From sequence record MK327936.1: a DNA stretch of 64,000 nucleotides. The stretch is one strand, 5' to 3'. Shown here one piece after another: positions 4,583 to 61,282 of the stretch. The notes under the pieces are model-generated. The model was not told where the DNA came from. It did not search any database and worked only from the letters and a program-made list of their open reading frames with translations. A program made the position numbers and the translations under genes. This DNA is from Escherichia phage vB_EcoM_G2540. The stretch's first letter is position 1, and each line of letters opens with the position of its first letter.

Positions 4583-6094
4583 ATGACTGACATTAAAGTA
4601 CATTTTTATGATTTTAGTCACGTGAGAATTGACTGTGAAGAAAGTACATTTCATGAACTCCGTGATTTCTTTAGCTTTGAAGCTGATGGGTATCGTTTTA
4701 ATCCGAAATACAAATATGGCCACTGGGATGGACGAATCCGTCTTTTAGATTATAATCGTCTTCTTCCATTCGGCTTAGTCGGGCAAATTAAAAAGTTCTG
4801 TGATAACTTTGGCTATAAAGCCTGGATTGACCCACAAATTAACGAAAAAGAAGAATTATCAAGAAAAGATTTTGATGAATGGCTTTCTAAATTAGAAATC
4901 TATTCAGGAAATAAAAGAATTGAACCACACTGGTATCAAAAAGATGCAGTGTTCGAAGGATTAGTTAATCGTCGTAGAATTCTTAATCTTCCAACATCTG
5001 CAGGTAAATCTTTAATTCAAGCTTTGCTTGCGCGGTATTATTTGGAAAATTATGAAGGTAAAATTCTTATCATTGTTCCAACAACTGCTCTGACAACTCA
5101 GATGGCTGATGACTTCGTCGACTATCGTTTATTCAGCCATGCAATGATAAAGAAAATTGGTGGCGGAGCATCAAAAGATGATAAATATAAAAATGATGCA
5201 CCAGTCGTTGTTGGTACATGGCAAACTGTAGTTAAACAACCAAAAGAATGGTTCTCACAGTTTGGAATGATGATGAATGATGAATGCCATCTTGCTACAG
5301 GAAAAAGTATTTCATCTATCATATCAGGTTTAAATAACTGTATGTTTAAATTTGGTCTATCTGGTTCATTACGTGATGGCAAAGCCAATATCATGCAGTA
5401 TGTTGGAATGTTTGGTGAAATATTTAAGCCAGTAACGACTTCTAAGTTAATGGAAGATGGACAAGTAACTGAGCTAAAAATTAATAGTATTTTTCTTCGC
5501 TATCCCGATGAGTTCACTACTAAATTAAAGGGAAAAACTTATCAAGAAGAAATAAAAATTATTACTGGGCTTAGTAAAAGAAATAAATGGATCGCTAAAT
5601 TAGCTATTAAGCTTGCGCAAAAAGATGAAAACGCTTTTGTCATGTTTAAACATGTATCACATGGTAAAGCTATTTTCGATTTAATTAAAAATGAATACGA
5701 TAAAGTTTATTACGTATCAGGGGAAGTTGATACCGAAACCCGCAATATAATGAAAACCTTAGCTGAAAATGGTAAAGGAATAATTATAGTAGCTAGTTAT
5801 GGTGTATTTTCTACTGGTATTTCAGTTAAAAATCTGCATCATGTTGTTTTAGCGCACGGTGTTAAATCAAAAATCATTGTATTACAAACAATCGGTCGTG
5901 TATTACGTAAGCATGGTTCTAAGACAATAGCAACCGTCTGGGACCTCATAGATGATTGTGGCGTTAAGCCAAAATCTGCTAATACGAAAAAGAAATATGT
6001 TCATTTGAACTATCTTTTAAAACACGGCATTGATCGTATTCAGCGCTACGCAGATGAAAAATTTAATTACGTAATGAAAACAGTTAATTTATAA
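4583..6094 (+). CDS. uvsW: UvsW DNA/RNA helicase
   Basis: 503 aa; Walker A PTSAGKS and DExH box MNDECH; synteny. Confidence 0.9.
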   Translation: MTDIKVHFYDFSHVRIDCEESTFHELRDFFSFEADGYRFNPKYKYGHWDGRIRLLDYNRLLPFGLVGQIKKFCDNFGYKAWIDPQINEKEELSRKDFDEWLSKLEIYSGNKRIEPHWYQKDAVFEGLVNRRRILNLPTSAGKSLIQALLARYYLENYEGKILIIVPTTALTTQMADDFVDYRLFSHAMIKKIGGGASKDDKYKNDAPVVVGTWQTVVKQPKEWFSQFGMMMNDECHLATGKSISSIISGLNNCMFKFGLSGSLRDGKANIMQYVGMFGEIFKPVTTSKLMEDGQVTELKINSIFLRYPDEFTTKLKGKTYQEEIKIITGLSKRNKWIAKLAIKLAQKDENAFVMFKHVSHGKAIFDLIKNEYDKVYYVSGEVDTETRNIMKTLAENGKGIIIVASYGVFSTGISVKNLHHVVLAHGVKSKIIVLQTIGRVLRKHGSKTIATVWDLIDDCGVKPKSANTKKKYVHLNYLLKHGIDRIQRYADEKFNYVMKTVNL

Positions 6095-6119
6095 GGGCTT
6101 CGGCCCTTTGGAGAAAAAG

Positions 6120-27977: not shown

Positions 27978-29385
<1,408 letters not shown>

Positions 29386-30820: not shown

Positions 30821-32408
<1,588 letters not shown>

Positions 32409-48400: not shown

Positions 48401-49365
48401 GAGTGTGGGGAAATCAATTTAGCGGGGAATCAGACACAACACGTTCTACCGTATTTGAAGTTAGTGATGAAACGTCTAGTCATTTTTATTCTCAGCGTAA
48501 TAAAGCTGGAAATATAACATTTAATATCAACGGTACAGTAACACCGATAAATGTTAATGCTTCAGGAACATTGAATGCAAATGGTGTAGCAACATTTGGT
48601 AATTCAGTCACTGCAACTGGTGAAATTATTTCTCGAAGCGCAAATGCTTTCCGTGCTATTAACGGAAATTATGGTTTCATTGTTCGCAATGATGGATCAG
48701 TAACGAATTTTATGCTTACTGCATCGGGTGATCAGACTGGTGGATTTAATGGATTACGTCCAGTATCAATTAATAATCAATCTGGTCAGGTTACAATTGG
48801 TGAAAGCTTAATCATTGCAAAAGGTGCTACTATAAGTTCAGGCGGTTTAACTGTTAACTCGAGAATTCGTTCTCAAGGTACTAAAACTTCTGATTTATAC
48901 ACTCGCGCACCAACATCTGATACAGTAGGATTCTGGTCAATTGATATTAATGATTCAGCCACTTATAATCAATTCCCTGGTTATTTTAAAATGGTTGAAA
49001 AAACTAATGAAGTGACTGGTCTTCCATATTTAGAACGTGGCGAAGAAGTTAAATCTCCTGGTACATTGACTCAGTTTGGTAACACACTTGATTCACTTTA
49101 CCAAGATTGGATTACTTATCCAACGACCCCAGAAGCACGTACCACTCGCTGGACACGTACATGGCAGAAAACCAAAAACTCTTGGTCAAGTTTTGTTCAG
49201 GTATTTGACGGAGGTAACCCTCCTCAACCTTCAGATATAGGAGCGATCCCATCTGATAATGGAATAATAGGTAATCTTACTATTCGCGATTTCTTGCGAA
49301 TTGGTAATGTTCGCATTATTCCTGACCCAGTGAATAAAACTGTTAAATTTGAGTGGATTGAATAA
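45496..49365 (+). CDS. 34: Long tail fibre proximal subunit gp34
   Basis: 1289 aa as T4 gp34; internal ITP(K/E)xL...ATQ repeats; first gene of the fibre operon. Confidence 0.9.
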   Translation: MAEIKRKFRAEDGLDAGGDKIINVALADRTVGTDGVNVDYLIQENTVQQYDPTRGYLKDFVIIYNNRFWAATDNIPKPAGNFNRIRWKALRTDAVYTTVSSGPYQLKSGEAISVDTSVGNDIEFTLPPSPLDGETVIIQDIGGKPGINQVKINSSNQSIVNFRGEQVRSVLMTHPKSQMIFIFNNRLWQMYVADYSREAAIVTPSTAYQAQSNDFIVRRFTSAAPINVKLPRFANHGDIINFVDLDKLNPLYHTIVTTYDETTSVQEVGTHSIEGRTSIDGFLMFDDNEKLWRLFDGDSKARLRIITTNSNIRPNEEVMVFGANNGTTQTIELQLPTDISVGDTVKISMNYMRKGQTVKIKAAGEDKIASSVQLLQFPKRSEYPPEAEWVTVQELVFNGETNYVPVLQLAYIEDSDGKYWVVQQNVPTVERVDSLNNSTRARLGVIALATQAQANADLENSPQKELAITPETLANRTATETRRGIARIATTAQVNQNTTFSFADDLIITPKKLNERTATETRRGVAEIATQQETNTGIDDTTIITPKKLQARQGSETLSGIVTFVSTAGATPASSRELNGTNVYNKNTNNLVVSPKALDQYKATPTQQGAVILAVESEVIAGQSQEGWANAVVTPETLHKKTSTDGRIGLIEIATQSEVNTGTDYTRAVTPKTLNDRRATESLSGIAEIATQVEFDAGVDDTRISTPLKIKTRFNSTDRTSVVALSGLVESGTLWDHYTLNILEANETQRGTLRVATQVEAAAGTLDNVLITPKKLLGTKSTEAQEGVIKVATRSETVAGTSANTAVSPKNLKWIVQSEPTWAATTAIRGFVKTSSGSITFVGNDTAGSTQPLESYEKNGYAVSPYELNRVLANYLPLKAKAVDSNLLDGLDSLQFIRRDIAQTVNGSLTLTQQTNLSAPLVSSSTATFGGSVSANSTLTISNTGTATRLIFEKGPQTGTNPAQTMTVRVWGNQFSGESDTTRSTVFEVSDETSSHFYSQRNKAGNITFNINGTVTPINVNASGTLNANGVATFGNSVTATGEIISRSANAFRAINGNYGFIVRNDGSVTNFMLTASGDQTGGFNGLRPVSINNQSGQVTIGESLIIAKGATISSGGLTVNSRIRSQGTKTSDLYTRAPTSDTVGFWSIDINDSATYNQFPGYFKMVEKTNEVTGLPYLERGEEVKSPGTLTQFGNTLDSLYQDWITYPTTPEARTTRWTRTWQKTKNSWSSFVQVFDGGNPPQPSDIGAIPSDNGIIGNLTIRDFLRIGNVRIIPDPVNKTVKFEWIE

Positions 49366-58576: not shown

Positions 58577-58726
58577 TTACTGCATGACAGTTATCACAGT
58601 CATGATAACACGTTGAATTCCGAACGCAAGAAGACCTCCTGCTACGGCTGGAACAACGCCTAACCCTGCCAGTAAAACGCTACCAGATACTAATGCAGCG
58701 CTTGTAATACCAATGAATGGACTCAT
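58577..58726 (-). CDS. Small hydrophobic membrane peptide, 49 aa
   Basis: MSPFIGITSAALVSGSVLLAGLGVVPAVAGGLLAFG...; start overlaps the gene 52 stop; below ORF-track cutoff. Confidence 0.4.
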   Translation of the reverse strand: MSPFIGITSAALVSGSVLLAGLGVVPAVAGGLLAFGIQRVIMTVITVMQ

Positions 58727-60051
58727 TTGATTTCCTCTAAATCTTTGGTGTATTCAGTAACTACATCAGTAGTTTTCCAATATTCGTTTTCTTCTTTTTT
58801 AGCTTTAGCTTCTTCAGCAAGTTTCTTCGCTTCATCGGAAGTCATATGAAAAATATTCATTCCAACTAGTTTATCAACATAAGAAGAATACATATCGATT
58901 TTCGAAAGTTCTTCGGTCAGTTCTTTACGAGTTTTACCCTGTACAACAATTTCACCTGAAATTACTTTCTTAATGAAATGTGCCTTGGCAAAGGCTAAAC
59001 GAAAAGCTGACTCAGTTTCTTTGATTTTGTTATCAATTCGTTTTTGGACATAAGTTTTACGAACTTCAACGAAGTCTTTGATTAAATCAACTACGTTATC
59101 GTAAACTTGTAGCTTTCCTTTCTCATTAATGACGGTAATATTCTGAGAACGACGCTCAATCAACCCGAAGTCTTTCATAATTTTTGCATGGCGTTCTTCT
59201 TCGTTATCGCTCAAAGAGTATTCTTTGCGGAATTTAACTTTGAAGCCAAAGCCATGCTCACCACAAGCATCATCCCATGTAATGAAGCCTTTATCTTCAA
59301 GCGGGTCTAAGATTTTACTCACATAAGTTTCACGATCATACTTATACGGAATCTCAGTGATATGCATTTGAGTTCGTGAAGTAAACTTGTACGTTCCACG
59401 AATTTCATATTGACCGTCAATCTCAACGACTTCACCACGAAATTCTGGGAATTCTACCTTCGGTTTAGTTACTTTCTTTCCTTGAATAGCTTGCAGTACA
59501 GCTTTCTTGACAGAAGAAACACTATGAGGAAGAATGTAAGTTGCATAACCAGTTGCAATACCGGAAACGCCATTAAGAAGAACAGTAGGAATAATAGGCA
59601 AATAGAAAGCAGGCGGAATGTGTTCTTTATCTTGATGTACCGGAGCATATTCAGTATCTTTATACACGTTATAGAAATTTTTACTTATACGAGCAAAAAT
59701 ATAACGACTCGCCGCTGCCTTTTGAACGGTACGAGAACCAAAGTTTCCTTGACCATCTAACAGAGGAAAGTTATTATTCCAAGTGTTAGCCATCAAAGCT
59801 CCCGCATCTTGCGCAGAGTTTTCGCCATGGTGATATCCAAGGTCCGCTACACCACCTGCGATAGAAGCGAGCTTATGAAACTTATCTTTATTTCCTCGTG
59901 CCAAATCAAGAGCTCGAGCAATAACAAATCGTTGAACTGGCTTAAATCCATCAATCATATTTGGGATAGCACGATTTTCAACCGTGTACATAGCATAAGC
60001 CAATGCTTCATTATCAATGATACTTTTTAAATCGCGATTATTCAGTTGCAT
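58723..60051 (-). CDS. 52: DNA topoisomerase II medium subunit gp52
   Basis: 442 aa as T4 gp52; synteny motA-52. Confidence 0.9.
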   Translation of the reverse strand: MQLNNRDLKSIIDNEALAYAMYTVENRAIPNMIDGFKPVQRFVIARALDLARGNKDKFHKLASIAGGVADLGYHHGENSAQDAGALMANTWNNNFPLLDGQGNFGSRTVQKAAASRYIFARISKNFYNVYKDTEYAPVHQDKEHIPPAFYLPIIPTVLLNGVSGIATGYATYILPHSVSSVKKAVLQAIQGKKVTKPKVEFPEFRGEVVEIDGQYEIRGTYKFTSRTQMHITEIPYKYDRETYVSKILDPLEDKGFITWDDACGEHGFGFKVKFRKEYSLSDNEEERHAKIMKDFGLIERRSQNITVINEKGKLQVYDNVVDLIKDFVEVRKTYVQKRIDNKIKETESAFRLAFAKAHFIKKVISGEIVVQGKTRKELTEELSKIDMYSSYVDKLVGMNIFHMTSDEAKKLAEEAKAKKEENEYWKTTDVVTEYTKDLEEIK

Positions 60052-60055
60052 AAAT

Positions 60056-60196
60056 TTACCATACTAGTGAATGTAGTGCCATAATAACATCAGAAATGAA
60101 AAGCACGACTTGAATTAATCCGAACATTACTCCATAATATAGTGCTACTAATAAAGTAGCAAGGGCTAATGAATAGCCCAAGATTTTCTTAATCAT
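60056..60196 (-). CDS. Small hydrophobic membrane peptide, 46 aa (52.1-like position)
   Basis: MIKKILGYSLALATLLVALYYGVMFG...; below ORF-track cutoff. Confidence 0.35.
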   Translation of the reverse strand: MIKKILGYSLALATLLVALYYGVMFGLIQVVLFISDVIMALHSLVW

Positions 60197-60347
60197 TAGT
60201 AGATAACAACACAAATGTTAAATATGCACACATACCCTGAGCTAAAGCTTGTGAAAACACGCTGCTGGCATCAATACAGATAGTTAAAACACATGCTACT
60301 ATCCAACAAATAAATGAAATAACTCCTAATAATTTTGCAATATTCAT
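60189..60347 (-). CDS. ac: Small membrane protein, 52 aa (Ac-like position)
   Basis: MNIAKLLGVISFICWIVACVLTIC...; position between stp and 52; T4 Ac is ~51 aa. Confidence 0.4.
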   Translation of the reverse strand: MNIAKLLGVISFICWIVACVLTICIDASSVFSQALAQGMCAYLTFVLLSTND

Positions 60348-60354
60348 ATTTTCC

Positions 60355-60435
60355 TCACTGGCGTCCGAAGACGCCTTTAGTTTTAAGATTATTACGATAG
60401 AACTGCATCACGTGTTCGTTGTGGAAATTACTCAT
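60355..60435 (-). CDS. stp: Stp peptide (26 aa)
   Basis: Translates to [26 protein letters not shown], matching T4 Stp as I recall it; TAATG overlap with ndd stop; missed by ORF track. Confidence 0.7.
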
Positions 60436-60893
60436 TAATATGCCTGCAAAACGAATTTAAAATTATCAGCCAACATACGGTTCATTTCTTCAAGTGTTTG
60501 ATACTCAGAATGATGATTACGAGTAAACGCTAAAGCTAACTGTCCTTTTCCAAATCCCGTCGTCAGAGGTTTCATCTTAGAAGCAGGCAGATAAAATACT
60601 GTGTATGGAACATTGTTATTTGCAATAGTACGTGCAAGCTGAGACCGACGTTGACGAATATGACTTAGAACTGCACTGAATCCTTGCTTAGAACGCTGAT
60701 TACCTACATAAAATCGTGCTGACACACATGGATTACTAAATGGACGACCATCTAATTTACTTACTAAAAAGTAAAATCCAGGTTTAGATAAAATATCTTT
60801 ATGCGGGGTTCCCAAAAACCATTCACCACCCTTGATTGTACCAATAACAGTAGCGCCTGCGTTGTTCAGATCAGTAACAGTCATGTATTTCAT
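60435..60893 (-). CDS. ndd: Nucleoid disruption protein Ndd
   Basis: 152 aa from ATG 60893 ([11 protein letters not shown]...) with GAGGA SD; ORF-track start 60947 is an upstream extension. Confidence 0.8.
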
Positions 60894-60951
60894 ATTAATT
60901 TCCTCTAAATTATTTTCTACTCCATGGCCGCATGAATACACGGCCATTAAA

Positions 60952-61167
60952 TTAATCGTCGCAGTCGACGCTCAATTCCCAAAACTCTTCTACGGTATAA
61001 GTTTCAGTATCATTTTCAATACAGAAACGTTCATTACTGTTATTTACTAAAGTAGCGTTAACTGTCATTTTCTCGCTGGTGCTCTTAAGAGGCGAAATAC
61101 GAATTAACTGATCACCGTTATCTAAACAGAAAATTTCGCCAACTTTTACATCTTTAAAACTTTTCAT
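60952..61167 (-). CDS. Hypothetical protein, 71 aa
   Basis: ORF upstream of ndd. Confidence 0.4.
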
Positions 61168-61282
61168 AATTCACCTCAAAGAGTATAAAATCCAAACGCA
61201 GTTGTTGACCATCCCATCCAATATGGAAAATTTGCACCAATGTAAAACATAAGAATATAAAACCAACCGCTCAGCAAATTCA

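Follow-up and report, generated by a model that had tools for sequence, protein, structure and literature searches.

The short interval between ndd and gene 52 raises the question of whether the very small reading frames found there are genes, and of what purpose is served by a stable hairpin which lies inside the first of them. The locus was analyzed in a window of 64,000 nt from Escherichia phage vB_EcoM_G2540 (MK327936.1), in which the sequence and the ORF list gave five consecutive reading frames on the minus strand between positions 58723 and 60893 (Table 1). On this strand ndd is followed by stp, ac, 52.1 and 52, which is also the arrangement of T4, and comparison of annotated homologous regions gave the order motA.1, 52, 52.1, ac, stp, ndd in T4 (NC_000866, AF158101), RB27 and PP01. 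Bases 59900–60950 (1051 bp) were found to be 100% identical to Escherichia phage vB_EcoM_G10400 (MK327937.1, Tequatrovirus) and to share 99% identity with RB27 and RB3, with 574 phage records matching this stretch. By its sequence the window is Tequatrovirus, and the ndd-stp-ac-52.1-52 arrangement on the minus strand is almost certainly the canonical block of T4-type phages. An earlier note on this DNA had placed three genes of fewer than 60 aa between ndd and 52, and all three were located there on the minus strand. They are already known and named T4 genes at known places, which makes the proposal correct but ordinary, with nothing new in it. The same note held that the ORF track misses Stp; this is true in practice, as many GenBank records omit stp, but not of the ORF list itself, which shows all three genes at a minimum length of 20 aa, the absence of Stp from the track being due to the length cut-off of the list.

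Table 1. Features of the stp locus and related elements, in window coordinates.
Feature	Position	Strand	Evidence
ndd, nucleoid disruption protein, 152 aa from MKYM	60435..60893	-	PF06591 Phage_T4_Ndd, 317.8 bits
stp, 26-aa peptide	60355..60435	-	26/26 vs T4 Stp, PF08133, phrog_6763
Hairpin GGCGUC-UUCG-GACGCC (sense)	60360..60375	-	Sequence, fold, conservation in T4-like relatives
stp stop UGA overlapping ac Shine-Dalgarno GAGG, UGAGGAAAAUAUG	60353..60357	-	Read from sequence
ac, 52-aa hydrophobic peptide, acridine sensitivity/resistance locus	60189..60347	-	T4/RB27 Ac alignment, phrog_2501
52.1, 46-aa predicted membrane peptide, ATG start	60056..60196	-	T4 gp52.1 alignment, PF24129 DUF7396
Gene 52, topoisomerase II medium subunit, 442 aa	58723..60051	-	Annotated 52 in T4, RB27, PP01 at homologous position
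pseT/pnk, polynucleotide kinase-phosphatase	28170..29069	-	tblastn; PF25109 HAD_PNKP 200.5 bits + AAA_33 kinase domain
rnlA (gene 63, RNA ligase 1)	30824..31945	-	tblastn; PF09511 RNA_lig_T4_1 + PF20819 T4_Rnl1_C
UUCG hairpins	62824-62809, 60375-60360, 24008-23989, 19211-19188, 17031-17016, 6736-6719	-	
UUCG hairpins	6093-6108, 48677-48692	+	

The two flanks of the block were also inspected. T4, PP01 and G10400 all have ndd annotated at this position, and GAGGAAATTAATATG lies upstream of its start. The annotation of this start is inconsistent among records, with RB27 using an upstream ATG (170 aa, window position 60947) and T4, PP01 and G10400 the MKYM start (152 aa). A GAGGAAA ribosome-binding site is found upstream of the ATG of the MKYM form, and the upstream ATG sits in a GGCCG...CGGCC stem (60894–60947, minus strand). 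On the other side, directly after gene 52, motA.1 (58577–58726, minus strand) encodes a fourth small hydrophobic peptide of 49 aa with a GRAVY of 1.60. The end of gene 52 and the motA.1 frame have 4 nt in common, and after motA.1 comes a clear terminator consisting of a hairpin and a U-run (58572–58551, minus strand).

The first of the three small frames was found to be T4 Stp, as the earlier note had proposed. Exact alignment gave 26/26 identical residues against NP_049878.1 / AAD42660.1, and the gene differs from T4 stp by two synonymous codons only (CAC/CAT at His5 and AAT/AAC at Asn15), with no nonsynonymous change; the differences from PP01 are likewise all synonymous. No frameshift or substitution was found by alignment to T4 in residues 4–14, where loss-of-function (suppressor) mutations of Stp are reported to cluster (PMC3014915). 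The peptide matches PF08133 (Anticodon nuclease activator family; Nuclease_act) over positions 1–26 of 26 with 75.3 bits (cut-off 25) and phrog_6763 with E = 4e-21. With a GRAVY of −1.03 and a net charge of +3 it is a basic, hydrophilic peptide, and a PDB sequence search at E ≤ 10 returned no matching solved chain. By tblastn the Stp peptide was identified in 817 phage records.

As a search of IMG/VR with Ndd gave just five loci, further diversity was gathered with degenerate DNA patterns for the Stp N-terminus in IMG/VR and metagenomes, an approach which biases the sample towards conserved N-termini. Among T4-like phages, Stp is 80–100% identical where the adjoining Ndd is only about 60% identical. 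Comparison of the vB_EcoM_G2540 gene with that of the siphovirus K1ind2 over 25 codons gave 12 synonymous differences and 2 nonsynonymous ones, and comparison with other Kagunavirus-like contigs gave 8–9 and 1–2, respectively, although few amino-acid changes are expected by construction because the homologues were found by peptide similarity. The many synonymous changes indicate that the identity of Stp is not simply the result of recent DNA transfer. Judged from these codon comparisons, the Stp frame is under purifying selection across phage families. Variation among the relatives compared is concentrated after residue 18, in agreement with the published description of a nearly invariant N-terminus of 18 residues and a polymorphic tail (PMC3014915).

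Homologues of Stp were observed in unrelated siphoviruses (Kagunavirus, Rtpvirus and T1-like phages), with protein identity of up to 96% and many synonymous differences. The loci include NC_041898 K1ind2 (L013, 1501–1578) and NC_007603 Rtp (L014, 1483–1575), with eight more in our set (L024, L026, L027, L029, L034, L037, L040, and L049). In one Kagunavirus-like contig of 4022 bp, present in two collections (L023, 226–450, and L041), stp is fused in frame with a downstream 49-aa ORF to give 74 aa, which is either natural or the result of a 1-nt assembly error. The siphoviruses with Stp presumably have unmodified DNA, in which case type Ic anti-restriction would benefit these phages directly.

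The two further frames had been described beforehand as small membrane peptides of 52 and 46 aa. Alignments and PHROGs identified them as T4 Ac and gp52.1, and both are strongly hydrophobic (GRAVY 1.42 and 1.68, respectively). Ac is annotated as ac in RB27, PP01, and T4; the peptide is identical to RB27 Ac, matches phrog_2501 and has one extra residue compared with T4 Ac (NP_049877.1, 51 aa; 96% by MAFFT). A Pfam profile search with Ac returned no family. Knock-out of ac results in acriflavine resistance, Ac conferring acriflavine sensitivity on infection in T4 (bioRxiv 10.1101/2025.06.30.662393; PMC13250531), and interference of Ac with AcrAB-TolC was proposed in a 2025 preprint (bioRxiv 10.1101/2025.06.30.662393). 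The idea that Ac or gp52.1 could be mimics of AcrZ, a small partner of AcrB, was considered and dropped because neither aligned with E. coli AcrZ.

The third peptide is identical to T4 gp52.1 (NP_049876.1) at 45 of its 46 residues, with T14 here and A14 in T4, and belongs to phrog_3595. Its start could be placed at an upstream TTG (60214, giving 52 aa), which is the version in the mechanical ORF list, instead of at the ATG (60196, 46 aa). However, in all records compared that annotate this ORF, whether it is named 52.1 or called hypothetical, the protein begins at the ATG and has 46 aa, and the match to PF24129 DUF7396 (81.9 bits, cut-off 27) runs over residues 1–46 of 46, the profile itself having 46 positions and thus fitting the ATG-started form. 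The ATG also shares bases with the ac stop in ATGATTAA, an arrangement typical of coupled T4 genes. A TTG start is thus considered very unlikely.

Rearranged versions of this module exist in other phages. Two T4-like contigs, each about 170.5 kb long (L031, 3500–4350, minus strand, and L028, 5700–6575, plus strand), carry a partial duplication of the stp-ac-52.1 module. Here ndd is followed by an extra 57-aa ORF, stp of the QWHRHNLKLTGVFGRP type, a first ac-like ORF and a fragment of 52.1 with a frameshift. A junction at the shared heptamer GAGTAAT then leads to a start-less T4-type copy of stp (F4S), a second ac-like ORF, 52.1 and 52. An extra Ac-like hydrophobic ORF of 51 aa, located between stp and ac, was seen in some T4-like phages (L039, 4521–4676, and also L038), giving tandem ac paralogues, and the record KT184308 (Aplg8) lists "acridine resistance protein (x2)".

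The genes of the block are closely packed. The TAATG overlap of stp with ndd described in the earlier note is real, base 60435 being common to the stp ATG (60435–60433) and the ndd stop TAA (60437–60435), and its position is shared by T4, RB27, PP01, T2, VR7, and metagenomic relatives. The UGA of stp is the start of UGAGGAAAAUAUG, which holds both the ribosome-binding site and the start codon of ac, and this placing of a stop within the next Shine-Dalgarno (SD) sequence is also found in all T4-like relatives with a GVFGR tail. The end of ac and the ATG of 52.1 overlap by 8 nt (ATGATTAA), and the stop of 52.1 lies 4 nt before the gene 52 ATG. With the TAATG, the stop within the next SD, the 8-nt overlap and the 4-nt gap, the cistrons would form one translationally linked chain; such coupling of the small genes is suggested by their spacing. 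No usable ribosome-profiling evidence for the Stp, Ac and gp52.1 peptides was found in the literature on T4, and the T4 record AF158101 has no regulatory features in the stp-ac-52.1 stretch.

The late promoter motif TATAAATA was not enriched in the window and none was detected near the stp locus. A promoter-like match (TTGCTA-17-TATTAT) is present at 60162–60134 on the minus strand, inside 52.1 and upstream of gene 52. The equivalent position in T4 reads TGCTTTA, which resembles the MotA box of middle promoters, and this motif is altered in vB_EcoM_G2540 by the G-to-A change in the T14/A14 codon of gp52.1. No usable description of a middle promoter upstream of gene 52 was found in the literature.

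The hairpin reported within the coding sequence of stp was located at the 3′ end of the gene, reading GGCGTC-CGAA-GACGCC on the plus strand. It spans codons 21–26 (GGC GUC UUC GGA CGC C/AG) and ends 2 nt before the stp stop. Folding gave −10 kcal/mol for the hairpin alone and −11.5 kcal/mol in context, with an ensemble frequency of 95%, and only one of 200 shuffles folded as well. Over its full 121 nt the stp region shows no unusual degree of structure (z = −1.1); the 16-nt hairpin alone stands out, and in the fold in context both the SD and the AUG of ac remain unpaired. A scan of 59800–61200 against Rfam at E ≤ 1 returned no family.

In the record of the identical phage G10400 (MK327937.1, 166537–166617, which equals window 60355–60435) there is no stp CDS, and the hairpin inside the gene is labeled "putative transcriptional terminator, -10.30". 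On such an annotation the hairpin would be a transcription terminator and the 26-codon frame around it would not be a gene. The plus strand lends some support, as GGCGTCCGAAGACGCC followed by TTTAGTTTTA is listed as terminator-like in a simple consensus scan. The sense strand, however, continues after the hairpin with AGUGAGGAAAAUAUG, which contains no U-run, and so falls outside the definition of an intrinsic (Rho-independent) terminator. The frame is moreover identical throughout to the genetically defined T4 Stp, is subject to the purifying selection across phage families described above, and is annotated as stp in the curated records of T4, RB27, PP01, RB14, and RB18. That the hairpin is a terminator in place of a gene is extremely improbable, and termination of early transcription is not its role. 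On the plus strand the hairpin may act against antisense transcripts, in addition to stp and not instead of it.

With a UUCG loop, a C-G closing pair and a stable stem on the mRNA sense strand, the hairpin belongs to the C(UUCG)G tetraloop class. UUCG tetraloops were first found in T4 mRNA (PMC4371310). The stp hairpin shares with the C(UUCG)G hairpins of T4 mRNA the loop and closing pair, a G+C-rich stem of 6 bp and a position on the sense strand of early genes, but it lies within a coding sequence whereas those occupy intercistronic spacers. Perfect UUCG-loop hairpins with stems of at least 6 bp number eight in the window compared with 0.18 expected from first-order Markov simulations, a more than 40-fold enrichment, with six of them on the minus strand (Table 1). 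Several of these eight, which are followed by U-runs, are probably terminators. A further hairpin with a UUUG loop (23128–23113), which is not among the eight, is located directly before an SD sequence, like that of stp.

It could be argued that the stp hairpin has no function of its own and is a by-product of the codons for the conserved G-V-F-G-R tail. Removal of the last eight codons of Stp is reported to lower both of its activities only moderately (PMC3014915), in T2-type phages the tail differs (NFGILGFKK or NFGILGSKNS) and the hairpin is absent, and siphovirus homologues keep GVFGK with codons unable to pair (GGA GTG TTT GGA AAA). Compensatory double changes in the stem were looked for among the relatives compared and none was seen. 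On the other hand, every T4-like phage examined which has the GVFGR tail encodes it with pairing-competent codons, and this holds in several lineages whose Ndd is only about 60% identical. A G.U pair is retained in all three stem variants of these relatives, GGT (G.U), GGG (U.G), and GACGCT (G.U), and the only change seen in the loop is from UUCG to UUUG. The hairpin is also fixed in place, always directly before GAGGAAAAUAUG and immediately 5′ of the ac SD, and UUCG-loop hairpins are enriched in the window as given above. The by-product explanation is a possible one, although we are inclined to doubt it.

The reading which is preferred, and which we regard as somewhat probable, is that the hairpin is a structural element of the sense strand which protects the message or keeps the ac start open. 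As a stable mRNA structure placed directly in front of the ribosome-binding site of ac, it would hold this site single-stranded, act as a barrier to decay, or both. It would be unfolded by the ribosomes that translate stp to its end, and these would terminate inside the ac SD. The evidence for selection on the hairpin itself is suggestive, not strong, because compensatory double changes are lacking and single transitions at synonymous sites preserve the pairing anyway. That the hairpin is a selected RNA element, and that the GVFGR tail of T4-like Stp is held partly by selection at the RNA level, is consequently put forward tentatively, as something to be doubted sooner than relied on. If true, the hairpin would determine how strongly the ndd-stp / ac-52.1-52 message is expressed or how stable it is, or would stop antisense transcripts, and selection on the RNA would explain why a tail largely dispensable for Stp activity is so constant.

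The biological setting of Stp is well described, and the earlier statement that it interferes with EcoprrI and unmasks PrrC agrees with the literature (PMC3014915; PMC12707154). According to the former, Stp is both required and sufficient for the activation of PrrC, a latent anticodon nuclease acting on tRNA-Lys, and it relieves restriction by EcoprrI while leaving modification unaffected; EcoR124I is also inhibited, but the type Ia enzymes EcoKI and EcoBI are not (PMC3014915). The same source describes PrrC as being kept latent by the Hsd proteins, its activation needing GTP hydrolysis, DNA with unmodified sites and dTTP, and the cut tRNA as being repaired by T4 with Pnk and RNA ligase 1 (PMC3014915). 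Early in infection, Stp would bind the host type Ic complex (EcoprrI) and block DNA cleavage, not modification. In hosts with prrC in the hsd locus this binding would release latent PrrC, which would cut tRNA-Lys in the anticodon loop, and the phage Pnk (healing half) and RNA ligase 1 (sealing half) would then repair the cut tRNA.

The T4 prr counter-defense set is complete in the window, with stp, pnk, and rnlA all present (Table 1), and this allows the behavior of the phage towards type Ic restriction and prr+ hosts to be predicted. From the identity of its peptide, Stp of vB_EcoM_G2540 is expected to inhibit type Ic restriction and to activate PrrC. Stp together with Pnk and Rnl1 predicts survival on prr+ hosts, and escape from type Ic restriction is predicted if the DNA of vB_EcoM_G2540 were unmodified. 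The interplay of Stp, EcoprrI, PrrC and Pnk/Rnl1 is a classic story of phage-host conflict.

The locus has practical value for annotation and little for discovery. Gene stp is annotated in fewer than half of the top 40 of the 574 matching records, and in a spread sample of the tblastn matches it is listed as a CDS in only one of the 28 records with an identical full-length Stp. Most Tequatrovirus records sampled omit stp. Where the gene is omitted, or its hairpin is called a terminator, automated surveys of anti-restriction genes or of defense triggers will under-count Stp.

When compared with known systems, the locus is closest to that of T4, where the 26-aa length of Stp, its place after ndd, the TAATG overlap, the 3′ hairpin and the ac SD are all the same as here. 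T4 Ac occupies the same place between stp and 52.1 and is likewise a small hydrophobic peptide with its first 49 residues identical, but it ends in SND (51 aa) and not in STND (52 aa), the longer form being found also in RB27 and PP01. T4 gp52.1 is also 46 aa long, at the same place and with the same 8-nt overlap with ac. The siphovirus loci carry the same peptide family, K1ind2 (Kagunavirus) Stp being identical to the T4 type at 23 of 25 residues, in an ORF which is unannotated, and Rtp rtp6 at about 79%. Their context differs, as ndd, ac and 52.1 are absent and the GVFGK tail is encoded without a hairpin; stp of K1ind2 is ATGA-coupled to an unrelated 49-aa ORF, and that of Rtp is preceded, at a distance of about 450 bp, by a polynucleotide kinase gene. 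A wider parallel exists with T7 Ocr and other anti-restriction proteins that trigger the abortive-infection sensors PARIS and Ronin: there too, a phage inhibitor of type I restriction becomes the signal that sets free an effector, either tRNA-directed or toxic (PMC12409349). Stp, a basic peptide of 26 aa specific for type Ic enzymes, is unrelated in sequence to Ocr, which is a protein that mimics DNA.
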